From a virus: a DNA stretch of 13,843 bases. Where the stretch lies: the UHGV virus genome UHGV-0253101. One strand, 5' to 3'. Numbering within the stretch: position 1 is the first letter of the stretch; each line of letters begins with the position of its first letter. A program made the translations under genes and the position numbers. The notes beneath the pieces were generated by a model. The model was not told where the DNA came from. It did not search any database and saw only the letters and a list, made by a program, of their open reading frames with translations. Shown one piece after another: positions 3,095-13,843 of this stretch.

Positions 3095-3301
3095 ATGATG
3101 GACAATTATTTTAAATCTGGCGATAACCGAGTATCTGATTCTGAGCACCAGCGTTTAGTGGCTACCAAAGCAGCTCTTGAAATTATCAAGGCCGCCGTAT
3201 CTGCCCCTACCCATGCGAAAAACGTGTCTTATGATTTGGAGGAGGCAATAAAATATCTTCCACGGTTGACTGATGCTATTCAGGAAACGATTGGCAAATA
3301 G
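3095..3301 (+). CDS. hypothetical small protein (68 aa)
   Basis: GGAAGG ribosome-binding site about 5 nt upstream of the ATG. Predicted helical and hydrophilic. Lies in a visibly AT-rich stretch. Confidence 0.45.
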   Translation: MMDNYFKSGDNRVSDSEHQRLVATKAALEIIKAAVSAPTHAKNVSYDLEEAIKYLPRLTDAIQETIGK

Positions 3302-3697: not shown

Positions 3698-4222
3698 CTA
3701 TTGTCCTGCAACTTGTTTAGTGAGTCTTAGGATGATGCTGCCAAGAATAGCTATGAATTTTTCACGATTATTGGCATCTGGACGGTTAAGATTCAGCTCA
3801 ATGTCTCCAACTTTTATGCCGAATCTTGCTGAGTTAATGAGATCTTCCTGACCACCTCGGCTAATAAATGTTCGTAATGATTCAATTTCTGCGTCAGTTA
3901 TTTCCGGGTTGTCTATTTGATGAGAGCGAACATTTCTTATTCTATTTAGGCGTTTAAGTTCTGCGACGGAGTGTTCATTTAGGCCGAGGTTGGCAGCTAG
4001 CTGAATTTTTGCGGCATAGGTCATGGTTAAGTTTTCACCAAATCCATCAAATAGATTTTGGTTACCTACAGCGGCGCAACAAAATGCCTCAATCATTGCT
4101 TCTGTAATCAGATGTACTCTTAAAACCAAACCAATATCATCTTCAGTATTTACTAACCTTTCAATTCGTTGCCAAGTTGCTTCGTTCATTATGAACTTTG
4201 ATTCAAAAATTTCAGGATTCAT
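3698..4222 (-). CDS. HEPN-like protein (174 aa); candidate abortive-infection or toxin-type defence gene
   Basis: Tracked ORF antisense to the late operon. An R-N-V-R-S-H motif (Rx4H, residues 96-101, coded at 3920..3937) fits the HEPN Rx4-6H ribonuclease signature, in a predicted all-helical protein. Visibly AT-rich compared with the flanking terminase gene. AGGT about 6 nt upstream of the ATG. Confidence 0.6.
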   Translation of the reverse strand: MNPEIFESKFIMNEATWQRIERLVNTEDDIGLVLRVHLITEAMIEAFCCAAVGNQNLFDGFGENLTMTYAAKIQLAANLGLNEHSVAELKRLNRIRNVRSHQIDNPEITDAEIESLRTFISRGGQEDLINSARFGIKVGDIELNLNRPDANNREKFIAILGSIILRLTKQVAGQ

Positions 4223-4249
4223 TTATTTACCTTATCAGCAGGGGAAAAT

Positions 4250-4777
4250 ATGGCGCTCACTGACAAACAAGAAATGTTCTGTCGCGAGTACCTCATCGAT
4301 TTAAACGCCACGCAAGCGGCTATTCGGGCGGGGTACAGCGCAAAAACAGCCAACCGTACTGCGTCCGAAAACATGTCAAAACCTGACATACAACTCAGAA
4401 TCTCCGAATTGAAAGCACAACGCAATGACTCTGTTGGAATAAATGCAGAATATGTACTTAATCGCCTTATTGAAATCGACCAGATGGATGTGCTCGACAT
4501 TCTCCTGCAAAACGGTGAGTTAAAGCCCATTAAAGACTGGCCTAAGGTATGGCGCACAACGTTATCAGGAATGGATGTTGTGGAGATGGTATCCGCAGAT
4601 AGTGCAGCACTCCTGAAGAAAATCAAATGGCCTGATAAGGTTAAAAACCTCGAACTTCTTGGTAAGCATGTTTCTGTTCAGGCGTTTAAAGAACAAGCTT
4701 CTCACGAACTAACAGGCAAAGACGGCGGCGCAATCCAGATTGAAACATCACCGATGAGCACTCTATTCGGAAAATGA
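4250..4777 (+). CDS. terminase small subunit (175 aa), Terminase_2-like N-terminal DNA-binding domain
   Basis: N-terminus MALTDKQEMFCREYLIDLNATQAAIRAGYS is the characteristic small-terminase helix-turn-helix signature. ATGA overlap with the large terminase start. Confidence 0.9.
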   Translation: MALTDKQEMFCREYLIDLNATQAAIRAGYSAKTANRTASENMSKPDIQLRISELKAQRNDSVGINAEYVLNRLIEIDQMDVLDILLQNGELKPIKDWPKVWRTTLSGMDVVEMVSADSAALLKKIKWPDKVKNLELLGKHVSVQAFKEQASHELTGKDGGAIQIETSPMSTLFGK

Positions 4778-6099
4778 CCTCGATTAATCCTATCTTTGAA
4801 CCGTTCATTGAGGCGCATCGCTACAAAGTCGCCAAAGGCGGTCGAGGTAGCGGTAAGTCATGGGCAATTGCGAGGCTTCTTGTTGAAGCGGCGCGTCGGC
4901 AGCCTGTGCGTATTCTTTGCGCTCGTGAGCTGCAAAACAGTATCAGCGATTCGGTAATCCGGTTGCTTGAAGACACCATCGAGCGTGAAGGATATTCGGC
5001 TGAGTTTGAAATTCAGCGTTCCATGATTCGTCATCTCGGAACGAATGCTGAATTCATGTTCTACGGCATCAAAAACAACCCGACGAAGATTAAATCGCTC
5101 GAAGGCATTGATATCTGTTGGGTGGAAGAAGCTGAAGCGGTAACGAAGGAATCATGGGATATCCTGATACCAACCATCCGCAAGCCATTTTCCGAAATAT
5201 GGGTGAGCTTCAACCCGAAGAACATACTCGACGATACCTATCAGCGGTTCGTCGTAAATCCTCCTGATGATATTTGCCTGCTGACGGTGAACTACACCGA
5301 CAACCCGCACTTTCCTGAAGTTCTCCGTCTGGAGATGGAAGAGTGCAAACGCAGAAATCCGACACTGTATCGTCACATCTGGCTTGGTGAGCCAGTAAGC
5401 GCAAGTGATATGGCAATCATCAAACGTGAATGGCTTGAAGCCGCAACCGATGCGCACAAGAAACTCGGATGGAAAGCGAAAGGCGCTGTTGTCTCTGCGC
5501 ATGACCCGTCAGATACAGGGCCGGATGCTAAAGGTTATGCATCGCGTCACGGTTCGGTTGTTAAGCGCATTGCCGAAGGTCTGCTGATGGACATCAATGA
5601 AGGTGCTGACTGGGCAACTTCGCTGGCGATTGAAGACGGTGCTGACCATTACCTGTGGGATGGTGATGGTGTTGGTGCTGGCCTACGCAGACAGACAACG
5701 GAAGCGTTCTCCGGCAAGAAAATCACCGCCACGATGTTCAAGGGCAGTGAATCGCCATTCGATGAAGATGCGCCGTATCAGGCCGGAGCATGGGCTGATG
5801 AAGTCGTACAGGGCGACAACGTTCGCACTATTGGTGATGTGTTCCGCAATAAGCGAGCGCAATTCTATTACGCGCTGGCTGACAGGCTGTATCTGACATA
5901 TCGGGCGGTTGTTTACGGTGAGTATGCAGACCCCGACGACATGCTGAGTTTCGACAAAGAAGCGATAGGCGAGAAGATGCTGGAGAAGCTGTTTGCAGAA
6001 CTGACGCAGATTCAGCGCAAATTCAATAACAACGGGAAGCTGGAGCTAATGACTAAGGTCGAAATGAAGCAGAAGCTCGGTATTCCATCTCCTACGTGA
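4774..6099 (+). CDS. terminase large subunit (441 aa), probably C-terminally truncated
   Basis: Walker [10 protein letters not shown] near the N-terminus, then a nuclease-domain-like C-terminal half. Ends ...[10 protein letters not shown]-stop, whereas homologues as I recall them continue with an SP-D/N-L-ADAL segment. Confidence 0.9.
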
Positions 6100-6100
6100 G

Positions 6101-7456
6101 GTGAATAAATGCCGATTGTTGGCTGGTATCGGTGGTGTCAACTCAAACGCTCCGAGCGTAAATGACATCGGCAATACGCTTCAGCTTATCAGGCAGAACA
6201 ATGATATTGAGCGTTCAGGCGCTAACAATGTTGGGCTGACTGCTTTGCAAGGCCTTTCAGGTATTGCGGGTGTTTTTCAGCAGGAAAAGCAGGCTCAGCG
6301 GCAGAAAGAATTTCAGCAGGCATACGCTAAAGCTTATGCGTCTGGTGATCGCGGTGCTTTGCGTCAGTTGGCTACTCAATATCCAGACCAGATTGAATCT
6401 GTTCGTAAAGGCATGGGATTCATTGATGAAGACCAGCGTAATTCTATCGGCACCTTAGCGGCTGGCGCACGCCTTGCGTCATCGTCTCCAGAAGCAATGC
6501 AATCATGGCTGCAAAACAACGCCAAGGAACTGACTCGCGTCGGTGTTGACCCTAACAGCGTTGCTCAGATGTATCAGCAGAATCCTTCAGGATTTGGTGA
6601 GTTTGTTGATCACCTTGGGATGGCTGCGCTTGGTCCGATTGATTACTTCAATGTTCAGGACAAGATAGCTGGTCGTGAGATTGACCGAGGCAGACTGGCA
6701 GAGACAATCCGCAGCAATCAGGCTGGCGAGGCGCTAACAGCGCGTGGTCAGAATATCACGATGCGCGGTCAGGATTTATCGATGCAGAGAGCATCAATGA
6801 AAGGGGCGGTTGGGAATAATGAGCGTACAGTTCAGTTAGCAGATGGCAGAACTGTAACGGTAGGCGGGAAGCTTCACGGCGCTGGGGCTAATGCGTTCTA
6901 CGAAGGTATCGACAACGAGGGGAATATGGTTCGCGTTCCTGCTGGTTCTATTGCCGCTCCGGCTACATCGGCAGCAAGCGCGCAGAATTACGCAATGAAG
7001 AAAGATCTTGATGCAATTTCTGGTGCATCAATTGACGATCTTGGCTTCATGACTGGCATTACAGGCTCTTCAGGTTCTCCTGCTCTTGGTGCAGATATTC
7101 GTAGCCGTGCATCTGGTGGTGATCAGAGGAAACTATACAACGCTGCACAGCGAATCCAAGGAAAGATGCAGAATCAGGGCATTGCAGCAGCCAGAGACAT
7201 GGGGGCATCCGGTATCAACACCGTTGCAGAAGCAAAGATGTATTTTCAAGGTATGCCACAGGTTGATTTCTCAAGCCCTGAAGCACTGCAACAATCAATG
7301 CGCGACATTCAGCAATATACCGACAATTACAACCAGCAATATAACGTTAATGTCGGTAATGGCGGGAAGAAATCATCAAGGCAACAGCCAGCTACTCAGC
7401 AATCAGCAGGAGGTAGCTACACGTCAAAATCAGGCATTCAATTTACGGTGGAATGA
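6101..7456 (+). CDS. putative DNA-ejection (injection) protein, P22 gp20-like (451 aa), N-terminus uncertain
   Basis: Starts at a GTG one nucleotide after the terminase stop. Gln/Ala/Gly-rich with no catalytic motif. Size and position (second-to-last late gene before the immI-like region) match P22 gene 20 (about 471 aa). Confidence 0.5.
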
Positions 7457-9294
7457 TGAAAGTAACTGCAAACGGTAAGACATTTACCTTCCCTGATGGT
7501 ACGAGCACGGAAGATATTGGCACCGCCATTGATGAGTATTTTGCTGGTCAGGCTGTTCAGCAACAAACAGTTAATCAGGCCAATAATGCACCAACACGGG
7601 AAGAACCATCATTGATGCAACAAGCTGGCGATTGGCTCACTGGTGGTCAAAGTGCAGGGCAAATTGCAGAACAGGCTGGTCGTGGTCTGGTAAACATACC
7701 ATTTGACGTATTACAGGGCGGCGCAAGTCTGATTAATGCAATCAGTCAGGGGCTTGGTGGCCCCAAGGTTTTGGATGATGTTTATCGTCCAGTAGACAGA
7801 CCGACAGACCCCTACGCTCAAGCTGGAGAAACAATTGGCGGGTATTTAGTTCCAGGAGTTGGAACGGCAGGAAGCATGGCTATTGGATCACTGGCAGAGG
7901 CCGCAAATCAGAAAGGTGATTTCGCACAAAATGCAGCTAAAAATGCCGGAGTTAACCTTGCCGCTCAGGGTGTTCTTTCCGCAGCAGCAAAGGGAATAGG
8001 GCGTGGAATAACGGCTATAAAAGGTGATATTGCGCCAGAAGTGGCAAAGAAAATTGCCACATCAGAATCGATGGGCGTGACACCAATGACATCTGATGTT
8101 ATCCCGCCGAAAAATGCTTTCACTCGCGGACTTACTCAGGATGCTGAGGGGGCTTTGCTCGGGACAGGCTCAAAGCGAGCGGAGCAATATGCAACGCGTA
8201 GTAAGCTGGTAAGCAATTATTTTGACCGTTTTGGTGAGTACAACCCTGATGATGTGGTGAGATCTCTGACCACCACGTTAAGGGGACGGAAGGATGCCGC
8301 TGGCGCTGTTATCAATGACGTCACCAATAAAATGGGTAATGCCGCAGTTGATACCACAAATACCATGAATGCTCTGAATACAGCGATCGCAAGACAGGAA
8401 CGGCTTGGGACTTCTGCCAATCAAAACCTGCTTACATCCTTGCGTAACCTACGTGAAGAATTAGCAAACCCTGCAACTGATTTGGATGTTACGTTTGATC
8501 TCTTGCGCCAGCACAGAACAGCATTTAGATCTAATGTTCAGGGAGATGCCATGGTCTTCCCCAACCAGGCAAAAGCAGCTACCAATATGGTAGAGAATGC
8601 AATGTCAAAAGACCTTCGTAACGCAGTTGCCAAAAACCTCGGTGCTTCAGACGCAGCAAAATACCTTAAAGCAAATTCCGATTATGCAAACGTTTATAAT
8701 AAGGTGCTTAATAAAAACATTGCTAACAAGCTCAACAAGGCAAGCAGTGAAGCCAGTCCTGAACTTATAAATACTGTTGTATTAAGCAGAAAACCATCTG
8801 ACGTGAAACGAATCTGGAGCGCATTGGATGATAAAGGGAAAGATGCTATGCGTGCAGCTTACGTCAGCAAAATAGCGGAAAAGGCCGGTGACTCTCCAGC
8901 CAAGTTCATCACGGAAGTTAATAAGCTGAAATCTCAGTCAGGCGGTGAAATTTACAACACTATTTTTTCTGGAAAGCACATGAAAGAACTTGATGCTCTT
9001 CATGAAGTTCTACAGCAAGCAGCAAGATCAGACACCGCAAATGTAGTAACTCAGACGGGGCAATCGCAAGCCAACAGGATAAGGACGATTGGCGCAACTA
9101 CGACTCTTGGCGTATCAATGGGGCTTGAGGCTGGTTTCGGTGCAATGATGCGCTTGTATGAATCCAAAGCAGCAAGGAATGCGCTCTTACGTCTGGCAAA
9201 CACTAAAGCTGGAACGCCAGCTTATGAAAGAGCGCTAAATCAGGCGGCTACTGCCGTGCGCCCGCTCTTAGTTAACGAAGCTACCCGGCAGTAG
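7453..9294 (+). CDS. putative DNA-ejection (injection) protein, P22 gp16-like (613 aa)
   Basis: ATGA start/stop overlap with the upstream gene. N-terminus [31 protein letters not shown] resembles prophage DNA-transfer proteins as I recall them. Size (613 vs about 609 aa) and position match P22 gene 16. Confidence 0.55.
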
Positions 9295-9316
9295 CACTGT
9301 AAGCCAAGGACGGCAT

Positions 9317-9799
9317 TTATTTTATAGTTTTTATGAATTCTTTATTAAATCCCTTTGCTTCTCCGGGGTATCTTCCGAAGACAATTTTTATAAAAACAGA
9401 AAAAATAAAGATAGCAACGCTTAACAACAATTGCAGTATCATTGGAACCCAAAGAACTACAGGCTCTATATTCATGAAACCAAATATTCTTCCGGCGATC
9501 ATGGCGAAGTACCACACTGTTATCAGCAAACTTAGTGGCATATGAATTACTGATATTACCAATCCAAGAGCATCAGTAATTCTGTTTTCAAATTTTTCAG
9601 GGGAAAACTTTTCTTTAAGGTAATTCAGTGCGCAGGCCTCATTCTCTGGATTTTCAGCATTTTTCCCTATAGCAATAGAAATCTCAGATATCCTTGATTC
9701 AATTCTTTTACGTTTAATAAAACTAGAAAAAAAGAACCACGCAATCTGCAACCCTATCCCCAGAAATAGAGTTGCGGCAACTAGCACAGCGTAACTCAT
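9317..9799 (-). CDS. multi-pass membrane protein (161 aa); candidate SieA-like superinfection-exclusion protein, by position
   Basis: Internal start of tracked ORF 9317..10027 ([24 protein letters not shown]...) with AGGAGG upstream. About three hydrophobic helices (residues ~3-25, ~83-105, ~112-140) around a charged loop. Strongly AT-rich. Occupies the slot between gene 16 and mnt that holds sieA in P22. Confidence 0.55.
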
Positions 9800-9841
9800 A
9801 GAATCAGACACACCAACCTCCTTAGTTTTGCGCAGGATACC

Positions 9842-10207
9842 ATGAAAAAAGTTAACATTGGAAACGTACCAAAGATGCTCGTTCCGCTCTTTGAGAGCGG
9901 TACAATTGTGTTTTGTAGAGACTTTCCAGAATGGCAACGCCTGCATCAAAAACTTGGCGTTGACGTGCATGACTCGGACGCCAACGGAGCGTCTCATACA
10001 ATGAGTAGCGAGAATGGTGTTTTGCATGTGATAGGCGTGTTCAATGGCAAACTATCTACTATTGCCCATGAGTGCGCTCACATGGCATTCGATATCTGCT
10101 CAAGGGTAGGTGTTGATGTTGAACCAGGAAGAGCCAACGAGACTTACTGCTACTTAATGAGCAGGCTTGTTGAGTTCTGCGAGCGACATATCAAAAAGCC
10201 GGAGTGA
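9842..10207 (+). CDS. small HExxH-motif protein (121 aa), possible minimal zinc metallopeptidase-like protein
   Basis: Tracked ORF divergent from the membrane protein gene, with a 42-bp gap between them. H-E-C-A-H at residues 76-80 (10067..10081) within [11 protein letters not shown]. Several Cys/His residues. No confident family assignment. Confidence 0.5.
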
Positions 10208-10220
10208 CCCGGCTTGATTA

Positions 10221-10400
10221 TTACTTTTTGCTGTCTGGAGTTCGCTTATCCAATACCCAGCCATGACCTGGCTTTGTTGTTGGTGGAAGCCTTTCGTTGT
10301 CCTTGACGGTTGCAAAATTGTCTTTCTTACCGCCGCGTGGGCCAACTTCTTGGTATATTCCGCCGTTTTTTCCTGTGTTTTCACCTGGTTTTTTCGCCAT
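10221..10400 (-). CDS. small basic Lys/Gly-rich protein (59 aa), tentatively YjzC-like
   Basis: Internal ATG of tracked ORF 10221..10415 with GAGG about 7 nt upstream. Protein MAKKPGENTGKNGGIYQEVGPRGGKKDNFATVKDNERLPPTTKPGHGWVLDKRTPDSKK. Family resemblance is from memory and uncertain. Confidence 0.4.
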   Translation of the reverse strand: MAKKPGENTGKNGGIYQEVGPRGGKKDNFATVKDNERLPPTTKPGHGWVLDKRTPDSKK

Positions 10401-10490
10401 GATATACCTCAACATACACCCGTTATTGGGCGATTAAATATTGATCTCATTTTATAAGTAGTCAATATGGCCCAGGTAAATGCAAAAATT

Positions 10491-10516
10491 AACCCACCTT
10501 CAGGTGGGTTTTTTGT
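10491..10516. terminator. rho-independent terminator-like hairpin overlapping the mnt stop codon, possibly bidirectional
   Basis: aacccacc-ttca-ggtgggtt is a perfect 8-bp stem followed by tttt on the plus strand. On the minus strand the same stem is followed by aattttt. Confidence 0.55.
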
Positions 10517-10751
10517 ACAAATCCTTCAGCGTATCAAACACCATCTTCTTAACAAGCTCTGACTGCTCATCAGCGATGCGTTCCGCATCGTCTCGATAGC
10601 CTGAAATTTTGGATGGCTTTGATACAGCATCAGTCACTATCTGAACTAATTCTGAATTAAGAGAGCGGCCATTGGATTTGGCTCGCTGTTTTAGTTTTTC
10701 CTTTAATTCGTAAGGTAGCCGCAGATTAAATTGCGGGTCATCTCTTCCCAT
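10500..10751 (-). CDS. mnt: Mnt repressor (83 aa), Arc/MetJ-type ribbon-helix-helix
   Basis: Protein MGRDDPQFNLRLPYELKEKLKQRAKSNGRSLNSELVQIVTDAVSKPS...DDAERIADEQSELVKKMVFDTLKDLYKKPT matches P22 Mnt closely as recalled, in length and sequence. Confidence 0.9.
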   Translation of the reverse strand: MGRDDPQFNLRLPYELKEKLKQRAKSNGRSLNSELVQIVTDAVSKPSKISGYRDDAERIADEQSELVKKMVFDTLKDLYKKPT

Positions 10752-10814
10752 TCTTGATGCCTCGCTTTTGTGAGTGGATCGGCATCTTATTATCTGCTGG
10801 TTGCATCCTCAATA

Positions 10815-10829
10815 AGACCACAGTGGTCT
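10815..10829. promoter_or_regulatory. putative Mnt operator: 15-bp palindrome AGACCAC-A-GTGGTCT
   Basis: Near-perfect dyad (7-bp arms) between the divergent mnt and tailspike starts. Resembles the P22 mnt operator core (GGTCCAC-G-GTGGACC as recalled). A partial half-site CACTGTGG lies at about 10852..10859. Confidence 0.5.
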
Positions 10830-10897
10830 CTTTGTTTGATTAATAATGCATCACTGTGGCAATGCTGCGGCGATTCCTTGTATCTGGAGCAAATTAA

Positions 10898-13843
10898 ATG
10901 ACAGACATTACAGCCAATGTTGTAGTGAGTATGCCTTCGCAACTCTTCACTATGGCGCGTTCTTTTAAAGCCGTAGCCAATGGCAAAATTTATATCGGTA
11001 AAATTGACACTGACCCGGTAAATCCTGAAAACCAGATTCAGGTTTATGTAGAGAACGAAGACGGTTCTCACATTCCTGTTTCGCAACCAATAATCATTAA
11101 CGCTGCTGGATATCCGGTATATAACGGACAGATTGCCAAATTCGTTACCGTGCAAGGCCATTCTATGGCTGTTTATGATGCGTATGGTGCGCAGCAGTTC
11201 TATTTTCCTAATGTGCTGAAGTATGATCCTGATCAGTTACGGCAGCAATTAGAAGACCCAGATGGAGCGAATAAATACCCAAAACTTCAGATAGCAAGAT
11301 GGAGAGACAGTTATGATGTAAGAGGTTGGGGGGCTATTGGTGATGGTGTTCATGATGACACATCAGCTCTATCAGAATTACTTTCTGTTGCAACAGGTGG
11401 TGAAAAGATAGATGGGCGAGGGCTTACTTTTAAAGTATCAACTCTTCCAGATGTCAGTCGATTTAAAAATGCTCGTTTTTTATTTGAGAGAATACCGGGT
11501 CAGCCTCTTTTTTATGCTTCTGAAGATTTTATCCAGGGAGAGTTATTTAAAATTACAGATACACCGTGGTACAACGCCTGGACGCAGGATAAAACGTTTG
11601 TATATGACAATGTCATCTATGCGCCTTTTATGGCTGGAGACCGCCATGGTGTAAATAACCTCCATGTTGCATGGGTTCGCTCAGGAGATGACGGGAAGAC
11701 CTGGACAACGCCGGAATGGCTTACAGATTTACATGAAAACTATCCCACAGTTAACTATCACTGCATGAGTATGGGGGTTGTCAGAAATCGCCTTTTTGCT
11801 GTAATTGAGACGCGGACCGTGAGCGGAAATAAACTGCAGGTTGCAGAGTTGTGGGATCGCCCAATGAGTCGCAGCCTTCGCGTTTATGGTGGTATAACGA
11901 AAGCAGCAAATCAGCAAGTCGCTTATATTCGCATTACTGATCACGGATTATTTGCTGGTGATTTTGTCAACTTCTCAAACTCTGGTGTTACAGGTGTTAC
12001 CGGGAATATGACGGTGACTACTGTTATTGATAAAAATACTTTTACAGTTACGACGCAAAATACCCAGGATGTGGATCAGAATAACGAGGGTAGATACTGG
12101 AGTTTTGGTACATCATTTCACTCGTCACCATGGAGAAAAACCAGTCTTGGAACTATTCCTTCTTTTGTTGACGGAAGCACTCCTGTTACTGAGATTCACA
12201 GTTTTGCGACGATTAGCGATAACAGTTTTGCTGTTGGCTACCATAATGGTGATATTGATCCACGCGAGCTTGGGATACTCTATTTCTCTGATGCTTTCGG
12301 TTCTCCTGGTAGCTTTGTTCGCAGACGCATACCTGTAGAATATGAGGCGAATGCATCTGAGCCATGTGTAAAATATTATGATGGCATTCTGTATCTGACG
12401 ACCAGGGGGACATTAAGTACTCAACCCGGTAGTTCATTGCACAGAAGCTCTGATTTAGGTACATCATGGAATTCTCTTCGCTTCCCAAATAATGTTCATC
12501 ACTCAAACCTTCCTTTTGCCAAAGTTGGCGATGAGCTGATTATTTTTGGCAGTGAGCGCGCATTTGGTGAGTGGGAAGGAGGAGAACCTGATAACCGTTA
12601 TGCAGGAAATTATCCAAGAACATTTATGACCAGAGTTAACGTCAATGAGTGGAGTCTGGATAATGTAGAGTGGGTTAATGTTACTGATCAGATTTATCAG
12701 GGCGGAATAGTTAACTCTGCGGTTGGTGTTGGTTCAGTTTGTATCAAAGACAACTGGCTGTACTACATTTTCGGTGGGGAAGACTTTCTAAACCCATGGA
12801 GCATAGGGGATAACAACAGAAAATATCCTTATGTTCACGATGGTCACCCGGCTGATTTGTATTGTTTCAGGGTGAAAATTAAACAGGAAGAATTTGTTTC
12901 AAGGGATTTTGTCTACGGAGCCACTCCTAACAGAACGCTTCCTACTTTTATGTCGACGTCAGGCGTGAGGACGGTTCCTGTACCCGTTGATTTCACAGAT
13001 GATGTTGCCGTCCAGTCACTGACTGTCCATGCAGGTACATCAGGACAAGTTCGCGCGGAAGTCAAACTTGAGGGTAATTACGCCATTATTGCGAAGAAAG
13101 TACCGTCTGATGATGTTACCGCTCAGAGATTAATCGTTAGCGGCGGTGAAACAACGTCTTCAGCAGATGGTGCAATGATAACGTTGCATGGTTCCGGAAG
13201 CAGTACTCCACGTCGCGCGGTATATAACGCACTCGAACATCTTTTTGAGAACGGAGATGTTAAACCTTATCTTGATAATGTAAATGCTCTTGGTGGTCCG
13301 GGAAACAGGTTCTCGACAGTTTATCTTGGCTCCAATCCTGTGGTTACCAGTGACGGAACATTAAAGACAGAGCCGGTCTCTCCTGACGAAGCATTGCTGG
13401 ATGCCTGGGGTGACGTCAGGTATATCGCTTATAAATGGCTGAACGCTGTCGCTATAAAGGGGGAAGAAGGGGCGAGGATACATCATGGTGTAATCGCGCA
13501 GCAACTTCGTGATGTTCTTATTTCTCACGGACTCATGGAAGAAGAAAGCACAACATGCCGCTATGCGTTTCTTTGCTATGACGATTATCCCGCAGTATAT
13601 GATGACGTCATTACTGGCCAAAGGGAAATGCCGCTGACTGATAATGACGGGAGCATCATTGTTGATGAGGATGATAATCCAGTGATGGTAATGGAAGACA
13701 TCATTGAGCGCGTTGAAATAACGCCAGCAGGATCTAGATGGGGGGTCAGACCTGATCTCTTATTCTATATCGAGGCGGCATGGCAGCGCAGAGAAATAGA
13801 AAGAATAAAAGCTAGGTTAGACTTAATAGAAGGGAAGCACTAA
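10898..13843 (+). CDS. tailspike protein (981 aa): P22 gp9-type head-binding domain, sialidase-like domain with two Asp-boxes (probable endosialidase) and C-terminal intramolecular-chaperone autoproteolytic domain
   Basis: GGAG about 8 nt before the ATG. N-terminus [50 protein letters not shown]...VLKYDPDQ is collinear with the P22 gp9 head-binding domain. Asp-boxes SGDDGKTW (11681..11704) and SSDLGTSW (12446..12469) fit the S-x-D-x-G-x-T-W consensus. The C-terminal ~160 aa ([10 protein letters not shown] ... [13 protein letters not shown] ...) resemble the peptidase S74 chaperone domain of endosialidases and some tail fibres. Confidence 0.9.

Follow-up and report, generated by a model that had tools for sequence, protein, structure and literature searches.

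We identify the interval between the gene 16 homologue and mnt in this 13,843-nucleotide stretch of viral DNA (UHGV-0253101; the whole stretch is called the window here) as the known phage P22 locus sieA–hkcC–orf59a, carried by a decayed Escherichia coli prophage. It makes up the left portion of the immI region of P22, also called the 'ant moron', and its three genes are separately assorting units rather than one system. The combined reading that we favor, at roughly three chances in four, is that of a P22 immI remnant in which sieA would act as the excluder alone, hkcC would encode a putative late hydrolase, and orf59a a YjzC-family protein. A first-pass annotation of the same DNA had held that none of the three products was confidently assignable. 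The membrane protein is instead SieA, judged by 93% identity, motif, position, and strand, an outcome that the annotation had itself named as overturning its view, and the other two are the named P22/HK620 genes hkcC and orf59a.

A P22 locus in a decayed prophage

DNA identity to phage P22 is 97.1% across window positions 9295-10500 (P22 13316-14514), a stretch in which the P22 record annotates sieA, PsieA, a terminator, and orf59a, and gene 16 lies immediately to the left of sieA in that record as it does in the window. Villafane et al. 2008 (PMC2629481) named sieA, hkcC, and 59a as genes of the P22 moron. The first-pass annotation had correctly placed its three ORFs between the gene 16 homologue and mnt (Table 1), at what is indeed a superinfection exclusion hotspot of the P22 family. 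It had also described the 121-aa HExxH ORF as divergent from the membrane-protein gene across a 42-bp gap, which is borne out when counted from ATG to ATG; the spacer shortens to 30 bp when the GTG start of sieA is used. The membrane-protein ORF stands, but its length of 161 residues included the stop codon, the product having 160 residues from the first ATG (at 9799) and 164 from the GTG. The atypical composition ascribed to the cluster holds for sieA (35.4% GC) but not for hkcC (46.2%) or orf59a (46.7%), set against 45.8% for the whole window. An Rfam scan found no RNA family in the window.

Table 1. Features of the sieA–hkcC–orf59a interval and its borders, in window coordinates
Feature	Position	Strand	Remarks
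Gene 16 homologue (ejection protein)	7453-9294	+	Left border; probable SieA target together with gp20; ORF, RefSeq context
sieA, type A	9317-9811	-	Inner-membrane exclusion protein by homology; 164 aa from GTG (start in the P22 record)
PsieA promoter	9842-9872	-	Placed by homology; promoter 13861-13891 in P22 BK000583
hkcC	9842-10207	+	121-aa soluble protein; HExxH at 76-80 (H76-E77-C-A-H80) and E100; late-gene strand
Bidirectional terminator hairpin common to hkcC and orf59a	10196-10215		Terminator scan, both strands; P22 'mnt terminator' 14212-14234
orf59a (HK620 HkcD)	10221-10400	-	59-aa basic, predicted all-beta YjzC-family protein; lies behind mnt, in the same orientation
Promoter-like site upstream of orf59a	10437-10465	-	TTGACT-17-AATATT, 9/12 consensus matches
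Hairpin terminator between mnt and orf59a	10491-10510		Terminator scan; strong T-run on plus strand; HK620 'tMNT'
mnt, Arc/Mnt-family ribbon-helix-helix repressor	10500-10751	-	Right border; Pfam Arc 2.8e-22, Repressor_Mnt 2.2e-18; P22 context

By their sequences, all three ORFs are real genes. Each product has a full-length PHROG match: SieA (residues 1-164 of 164) to phrog_7745 'SieA-like' at 7e-109, HkcC to phrog_1365 at 2e-39, and Orf59a to phrog_3202 at 7e-31. Relative to P22, hkcC carries 5 synonymous codon changes and 1 non-synonymous change and orf59a 4 and 1, which leaves Orf59a with one residue different from its P22 counterpart. Reading hkcC as a chance ORF that overlaps the sieA promoter and a terminator would suit the two P22 records BK000583 and NC_002371, which leave the ORF without annotation and show only the promoter and terminator there. 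We nevertheless give this reading a negligible probability and reject it on the codon pattern, the homologue family with its invariant His, Glu, His, and Glu residues, and a confident fold prediction. The gene is moreover annotated in HK620, many other phages, and RefSeq, in addition to its place among the published moron genes. HkcC is 99.2% identical to the HK620 hkcC product and 99.2% identical to the P22 ORF (tblastn), and the window gene has the same place, strand, and terminator as HK620 hkcC, with nothing material different. Homologues reach down to ~25% identity, and clustering at 50% identity divides this family of ~120-aa proteins into at least 546 clusters. For more than 20 years hkcC was listed as 'unknown' in P22 and HK620; it now yields a testable prediction of a small metal-dependent hydrolase.

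SieA and superinfection exclusion

Sequence comparison identifies the membrane protein as a true SieA orthologue of type A, in keeping with the role in superinfection exclusion that had been suspected for it. It is identical to P22 SieA at 152/164 residues (E = 3e-114), and the cytoplasmic motif of the family, FxRYPxEAxxFNK, is found near the C-terminus at residues 145-157. Hydrophobic regions are predicted at ~5-32, 78-113, and 112-150 (Kyte-Doolittle). Hofer et al. 1995 is reportedly a source for P22 SieA. The gene has the gene 16 homologue on one side and that of gene 9 on the other and runs opposite to the late genes, as in P22, and this location in P22-like prophages is the type-A criterion of Leavitt et al. 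2024 mBio (PMC10883804). PsieA sits within the 5' end of hkcC, and the 85 bp upstream of sieA differ from P22 by one base. The window protein resembles P22 SieA in length, position, orientation, promoter region, motif, and its three hydrophobic regions; it differs by 12 substitutions and in its setting, an E. coli host and a defective prophage whose tailspike is a K1 endosialidase. The 12 non-synonymous changes stand beside 10 synonymous ones, a ratio far above that of the neighboring genes. Pfam and NCBIfam searches with SieA returned noise alone.

We infer the exclusion function of this allele from its 93% identity to P22 SieA, for which the genetics are published. Leavitt et al. (PMC10883804) report that P22 SieA is located in the inner membrane, that sieA with 85 bp of upstream DNA suffices to block DNA injection by P22-like phages, that a single chromosomal copy of this insert gives at least 10^7-fold exclusion, and that phages escape through mutations in gp16 and gp20. 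An injection block was also shown there for the type-B SieA of HS1, and CUS-3 was excluded by a factor of at least 10^8 by P22 SieA in an E. coli K1 host. In the lysogen, sieA would be transcribed leftward from its own promoter, and its product, a putative three-pass inner-membrane protein, would alone keep incoming P22-like phages from injecting their DNA; interference with the trans-envelope conduit formed by gp20/gp16 is the most likely way. The SieA mechanism was worked out in 2024, and the flagged cluster offers little new in this respect.

The relevant targets would be CUS-3-like K1 phages, because the prophage carries a tailspike of the CUS-3-type K1 endosialidase. The sieA gene and its promoter region persist nearly unchanged in a decayed prophage of a urinary E. 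coli isolate, beside the K1 endosialidase tailspike gene, and this prophage probably still protects its host against CUS-3-like K1 phages. Such protection, if real, bears on phage therapy of K1 strains.

The first-pass annotation had likened the membrane protein and the HExxH protein to a two-component exclusion or abortive-infection module. Some features of the locus fit a joint action of SieA and HkcC: the two genes are adjacent and divergent across a spacer of 30-42 bp, PsieA and the 5' end of hkcC overlap, and the place is a genuine exclusion hotspot. We consider the module highly improbable, however, and reject it, since the published genetics contradict it; the insert that gives full exclusion holds only ~55 bp of hkcC (PMC10883804), and sieA alone suffices. 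The two genes also do not regularly travel together in the gene 16–mnt interval, where a co-occurrence survey had been suggested. In our survey set of 80 IMG/VR viral contigs whose hkcC has at least 99% identity, which gauges turnover of the neighboring slot rather than deep co-evolution, type-A sieA stands beside hkcC in only 13. In total, 12 unrelated gene families occupy the sieA slot (at least 11 besides type-A sieA), most of them encoding envelope proteins. A scan of one genome per species gave just 11 loci, and the co-occurrence survey therefore rests on IMG/VR. Most E. coli genomes among the matches listed have hkcC, orf59a, and mnt without this sieA, and HK620 has hkcC and no sieA. The phages with HkcC relatives include both temperate ones (P22-like and lambdoid) and strictly lytic ones (N4-like and T7-like), the latter counting against a SieA–HkcC module; relatives also stand behind the lysis genes in late operons, for example in phage L, with no sieA nearby. 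PADLOC returned no defense-system match for SieA, HkcC, or Orf59a. HkcC would be expected to have no role in SieA exclusion.

Expression of hkcC and orf59a and their possible pairing

The hkcC gene shares the strand of genes 20, 16, and 9, a scan of the interval between gene 16 and hkcC found no plus-strand promoter-like or terminator-like site, and the gene ends directly before the bidirectional terminator. From strand and context, HkcC would be made from late read-through transcripts in lytic growth, and the relatives located behind lysis genes in late operons, or in lytic N4-like and T7-like phages, agree with this; in this remnant hkcC may be silent, because the late activator region appears deleted. 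For orf59a, the P22 annotation suggests that the gene is probably co-transcribed with mnt in the lysogen. Promoter-like sites such as the one upstream of orf59a are no more numerous in the region than expected from shuffled sequence. The hairpin common to hkcC and orf59a corresponds to 'tORF59A' of HK620, annotated as a 'bidirectional terminator' in the HK620 record (AF335538, Clark et al. 2001).

We propose that Orf59a belongs to a divergent proteobacterial and phage branch of YjzC, because it scores 19.4 bits against the Pfam YjzC model (PF14168; E 1.3e-3), below the curated cut-off of 25. Among the bridging homologues, those with 40-60% identity have PF14168 and closer ones bear the UniRef name 'YjzC family protein'. 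Orf59a and YjzC proteins have a common invariant core, G..E.GPRGG...PPT, and AlphaFold2 predicts three beta strands for Orf59a (pLDDT 87).

Whether hkcC and orf59a work together as a pair, with Orf59a as a small inhibitor of a protease, an antitoxin-like partner, or a substrate, in a convergent cassette beside a ribbon-helix-helix repressor gene, is a question on which the evidence divides, and we regard such a pair as doubtful. The two genes are often found together, orf59a being present in 70/80 of the contigs with near-identical hkcC, and the convergent arrangement is kept in Xenorhabdus, Proteus, and a Pasteurellaceae genome, there on phage backbones of a kind other than P22, with orf59a 64-80% identical. 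A ribbon-helix-helix gene lies just upstream of orf59a in two of these (Proteus, Pasteurellaceae), a YjzC gene in environmental contigs runs convergently with what remains of an HkcC-family gene, and one bidirectional terminator serves both hkcC and orf59a. On the other hand, hkcC lacks orf59a in 10/80 contigs, and 11/13 loci from four Orf59a/YjzC homologue clusters have no HkcC-family match. The orf129-type relatives of HkcC (phage L, ST64T) and the lytic-phage relatives likewise lack an orf59a neighbor. The adjacency may merely reflect joint inheritance of a cassette, and the two genes are not co-transcribed, because they are convergent.

HkcC as a putative metal-dependent hydrolase, compared with known zincins

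The zincin signature of HkcC and the size of its family are described here for the first time. The family is very large and phage-wide and has no Pfam model. The annotation had made its suggestion depend on conservation of the HExxH motif, and the motif is conserved: H76 and H80 are present in 129/129 diverse family members and E77 in 128/129, and all three are invariant in a 110-member alignment. E100 is invariant across the family as well, with G49 and Y104 nearly so. From this gluzincin-like signature, HExxH-x19-E...Y, we infer for HkcC a metal-dependent hydrolytic activity, probably that of a peptidase. The protein has no hydrophobic segment, a mass of ~13.6 kDa, and a predicted pI of 6.4.

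The AlphaFold2 model of HkcC (pLDDT 89, pTM 0.83) predicts, in this order, two short beta strands followed by a helix, then a beta hairpin, the HExxH helix (71-88), and a helix spanning 100-116, an arrangement consistent with a minimal zincin topology. The latter helix is predicted to start at E100, which lies 20 residues past H80 and is a candidate third metal ligand. The predicted fold has no significant similarity to any solved structure, zincins included. With the window protein as query, no Pfam family was found at E <=0.1 and none above threshold, and none in NCBIfam or PADLOC. The strongest of the weak matches across the family are nearly all zincins (SprT-like, DUF5700, and M48, and, in the PDB, myroilysin and astacin); SprT-like (PF10263) is matched weakly by 17/110 relatives, at best with E 1e-4, and the matches of HkcC among viral structures include proteins named SprT-like or metalloprotease. 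In the literature, we found no functional study of hkcC, orf59a, YjzC, or SprT-like proteins in anti-defense.

Repressor cleavage by HExxH proteases is well known from mobile elements (ImmA/ImmR, IrrE/DdrO), and HkcC could be imagined as a protease of the ImmA/IrrE kind that serves the immI circuit as an anti-repressor, with Mnt, Arc, or the main prophage repressor as its substrate. The place of hkcC in a secondary immunity region near mnt would agree with this, as would the ribbon-helix-helix genes beside the hkcC–orf59a pair in Proteus and Pasteurellaceae. None of the 110 family members matches Peptidase_M78 (PF06114), however, IrrE-named viral models match HkcC only weakly (E ~0.03-0.05), and the neighboring Mnt is a ribbon-helix-helix repressor, not of the XRE type. 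HK620 keeps hkcC intact while its mnt and ant are mere remnants, and relatives of HkcC occur after the phage L lysis genes and in lytic phages, which as a rule have no repressors. Given the missing M78 match, the lytic-phage relatives, and the HK620 remnants, we reject the anti-repressor reading as improbable.

We return to HkcC as a putative late hydrolase. The target of a cytoplasmic HkcC would be a protein of the host or of a rival phage. As a tentative extension, which we think more likely wrong than right, HkcC may be the founder of an undescribed, phage-wide family of ~120-aa minimal gluzincin-type metallohydrolases, made in lytic growth and cleaving a specific host or rival-phage protein in host takeover or counter-defense; where its gene sits in an immI-type cassette, Orf59a may cooperate with it or restrain it.

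Comparison with known zincins places HkcC near gluzincins and SprT-like/SPRTN proteins: its predicted structure has HExxH on a helix and a beta-sheet and helix subdomain on the N-terminal side, and its invariant Glu lies downstream, at the start of the next predicted helix. Thermolysin has the same spacing of its Glu, 20 residues past the second His. SprT proteins have a conserved His as third ligand and a zinc ribbon, neither of which is evident in HkcC, whose family has no further invariant His and no invariant Cys. HkcC also differs from zincins in size, with only ~120 residues in total. ArdC has two domains, of which the N-terminal one binds ssDNA; HkcC is by contrast a single small domain. 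The ArdC-type SprT-like domains of plasmids (PMC7213743), as a mobile-element zincin thought to counter host defense, nonetheless provide our working analogy for HkcC.

The ant-moron cluster and its prophage

Over window positions 9295-10500, DNA identity is 97.1% to phage P22 and about 50 P22-like Salmonella phages. In the curated P22 record, the matching stretch contains sieA and the sieA promoter, a terminator and orf59a; mnt, arc, ant and gene 9 come next. The P22 counterpart of the 121-aa ORF differs by one amino acid and is unannotated in that record; in the HK620 record this ORF is named hkcC and listed as 'unknown', and the 59-aa ORF corresponds to a possible HkcD. Villafane et al. called this region a hypervariable 'ant moron' and distinguished ten types of it among sixteen genomes (PMC2629481). 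Together, these matches and annotations indicate that the sieA-hkcC-orf59a cluster is already described. The first-pass annotation placed the three ORFs correctly, as our coordinates reproduce; its statement that none is confidently assignable does not hold, as the membrane protein is a true sieA orthologue and the other two are known P22/HK620 genes. The atypical composition that it ascribed to all three is confined to sieA (35.4% GC), with hkcC (46.2%) and orf59a (46.7%) close to the window as a whole (45.8%).

Features of the cluster and its surroundings (window positions)
Feature	Position	Strand	Description
68-aa gene	3095-3301	plus	phrog_5901 (unknown)
174-aa gene	3698-4222	minus	phrog_5483 (unknown function), no Pfam match
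Large terminase and gene 20 homologue	4774-7456		441-aa terminase gene directly abuts gene 20 homologue
Gene 16 homologue	end at 9294		left of sieA
sieA	9317-9811	minus	membrane protein; 164 aa with the P22-record GTG start, 160 aa from ATG 9799
hkcC	9842-10207	plus	121 aa; H76-E77-C-A-H80
orf59a	10221-10400	minus	59 aa, Lys/Gly-rich
mnt	10500-10751		Pfam Arc 2.8e-22, Repressor_Mnt 2.2e-18
Palindrome	10815-10829		AGACCAC-A-GTGGTCT, perfect
Tailspike gene	10898-13843		981 aa, stops precisely at the window's final base

The queried stretch 9295-10900 matches E. coli EC931, which was isolated from urine, at 100% identity; in that chromosome the corresponding P22-like prophage remnant adjoins ybhB and the bio genes. 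Between the large terminase gene and the gene 20 homologue, the portal, scaffold, coat, tail-accessory and gene 7 genes are all missing. Upstream, the RefSeq annotation (locus L002, 1-17000) shows an IS5 insertion together with an excisionase and a holin that are both partial, and includes no immunity or replication region. Despite this decay, sieA, hkcC, orf59a, mnt and the tailspike gene are intact. An AT-rich stretch (39-40% GC) that separates the KilA-N gene from the small terminase gene carries the 68-aa and 174-aa genes and looks like another moron within the late operon.

SieA and the exchange slot beside hkcC

The earlier view of the membrane protein as an exclusion protein is supported. 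SieA is identical to P22 SieA at 152 of 164 residues, matches the SieA PHROG over its full length (7e-109) and has hydrophobic regions at residues ~5-32, 78-113 and 112-150; its residues 145-157 are an instance of FxRYPxEAxxFNK, which is kept across SieA types A to C (Leavitt et al. 2024, PMC10883804). In that study, a single copy of P22 sieA flanked by just 85 bp upstream and 22 bp downstream cut P22 plating at least 10^7-fold and lysogenisation 10^5-fold. P22 SieA resides exclusively in the inner membrane and stops K+ efflux, a marker of DNA entry, and escape from it requires changes in the C-terminal parts of gp16 and gp20. It is also active in E. coli, where it excludes CUS-3, a K1 phage, at least 10^8-fold (PMC10883804).

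Codon changes relative to P22 number 12 non-synonymous and 10 synonymous in sieA, compared with 1 and 5 in hkcC and 1 and 4 in orf59a. SieA appears to evolve much faster than the neighbouring proteins, and its far higher ratio fits an arms-race gene. Since the 85 bp upstream of sieA differ from P22 by a single base and the tailspike belongs to the CUS-3 type of K1 endosialidase, the present function of sieA is most likely to protect a K1 host from CUS-3-like phages.

The tailspike comprises P22 head-binding, endosialidase N-terminal extension, beta-propeller, beta-barrel, catalytic and S74 chaperone domains, and its gene shares 98.5% DNA identity with the CUS-3 counterpart. It directly follows mnt (gap 10752-10897), arc and ant being absent here; mnt has 75% DNA identity to P22 mnt. 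Because the palindrome in this gap resembles the P22 Mnt operator, the prophage Mnt might control a putative promoter that reads into the tailspike gene.

The first-pass annotation paired the membrane protein with the HExxH protein as a two-component exclusion or abortive-infection module. We reject HkcC as a SieA partner: sieA alone suffices, in a published construct that includes ~55 bp of hkcC and no more; type-A sieA is present in just 13 of 80 IMG/VR contigs with hkcC at least 99% identical to that of the window, where orf59a is present in 70; and the content of the interval between gene 16 and hkcC varies. In these contigs this slot spans 240-1330 bp and is occupied by a total of 12 unrelated gene families, which lie on the minus strand and mostly have lipoprotein or secretion signals or predicted transmembrane segments. 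Besides SieA, the commonest are a 161-aa lipoprotein (18/80 loci), a 129-aa secreted protein (12/80), hkcB-like proteins (8/80) and a 75-aa protein with two transmembrane segments (8/80). Among the matches listed, most E. coli genomes likewise cover hkcC, orf59a and mnt and not this sieA. The proposal of an exclusion hotspot is upheld. The slot is a cassette-exchange site, and hkcC, at least 99% identical throughout by choice of contigs, is its constant flank, outside the exchanged cassette. The other slot genes may encode alternative exclusion or envelope-modifying proteins.

Orf59a and the timing of hkcC

Orf59a and its P22 counterpart differ at a single residue. We detected 108 homologue clusters, the distant ones with Pfam YjzC, and several closer homologues are labelled 'YjzC family protein' in UniRef; our search found no functional literature on Orf59a. 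Its invariant core is G6, G14, E18, G20-P-R-G23 and P39, and a small three-stranded beta domain is confidently predicted (pLDDT 87). The P22 record labels the terminator downstream of orf59a as the mnt terminator, an indication that orf59a and mnt are co-transcribed in the lysogen; a hairpin separates mnt from orf59a, and a weak promoter-like site lies upstream of orf59a.

The main rival to treating the neighbours separately is that hkcC and orf59a are linked, which we consider unlikely. The convergent pair is kept in Xenorhabdus, Proteus and a Pasteurellaceae genome on backbones unlike P22, with a ribbon-helix-helix gene adjoining in two of the three, and in environmental contigs a 54-aa HkcC-family remnant (contig positions 2718-2879) is convergent to a YjzC-family gene. 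However, 11 of 13 loci drawn from four YjzC homologue clusters have no HkcC-family match, and HkcC relatives of the orf129 type occur without orf59a.

hkcC has the same orientation as genes 20, 16 and 9. A consensus scan from the end of gene 16 to hkcC found no plus-strand promoter-like or terminator-like site; the first plus-strand hairpin overlaps the hkcC stop codon and is an annotated terminator in P22 and HK620 (bidirectional in HK620). Distant relatives occupy clearly late or lytic positions: orf129 lies between Rz and dec in phages L and ST64T, an arrangement also found in Citrobacter and Atlantibacter prophages; in T7-like phages, relatives follow the lysis genes or adjoin the RNA polymerase gene; and N4-like phages carry them in a small-ORF block, presumably the early region, divergent from the terminase genes. 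From strand and the context of relatives, we infer that hkcC is made in the lytic cycle. A role in prophage-based exclusion is unlikely because the family is common to temperate and strictly lytic phages; the most economical guess is that HkcC serves lytic growth, for example in host takeover or counter-defence.

HkcC and the zincins

Profile searching against 1.84 billion representative proteins recovered 546 HkcC clusters at E<=1e-3 (151 at E<=1e-10), nearly all of them single-domain proteins of 105-140 aa. In mEp lambdoid phages the domain forms the N-terminal part of a 194-aa fusion after the lysis genes (mEp044 4001-4585). The P22-like Salmonella phages SE1, ST160, ST-32, Phi75 and UAB_Phi20 each have two tblastn sites, probably the ant-moron hkcC copy and, behind the lysis genes, a paralogue of the orf129 type.

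The HExxH motif is retained in close homologues (43-78% identity) and across 129 diverse members, all of which have H76 and H80, while G49, E77 and E100 are each present in 128 and Y104 in 124; a 110-member alignment shows no variation at H76, E77, H80 and E100 and very little at P15, G49 and Y104. This gives the signature HExxH-x19-E, the final E usually within N-E-x-x-C-Y, with the ligand spacing of thermolysin-type gluzincins. The AlphaFold2 model is confident (pLDDT 89, pTM 0.83) and runs through two short strands, a helix, a beta hairpin, a helix carrying HExxH (71-88) and a helix that starts at E100 (100-116), a predicted topology that is that of a minimal zincin. The protein has a predicted pI of 6.4, with neither a hydrophobic segment nor a signal peptide in its sequence.

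The family has no Pfam model and no matching solved structure, and its weak links point mostly to zincins. Pfam SprT-like is touched by 17 of 110 members (best 1e-4), and DUF5700, DUF4344, M48 or DA1-like by a few; PDB profile matches to myroilysin, astacins and Lys-specific metalloendopeptidase are marginal. In a viral structure library, 26 matches at E<1e-3, with TM-scores as high as 0.83, were to small phage proteins listed as uncharacterised; the few matches with names, within or just beyond this cut-off, carry SprT-like or metalloprotease labels. We do not file HkcC in SprT-like, M78 or another curated family. On signature, modelled fold and weak matches, we regard it as a putative zincin-like protein with a gluzincin-type signature. 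The remaining interest of the cluster lies in hkcC, missing from the reference P22 annotation, as part of a very large family of small zincin-like phage proteins.
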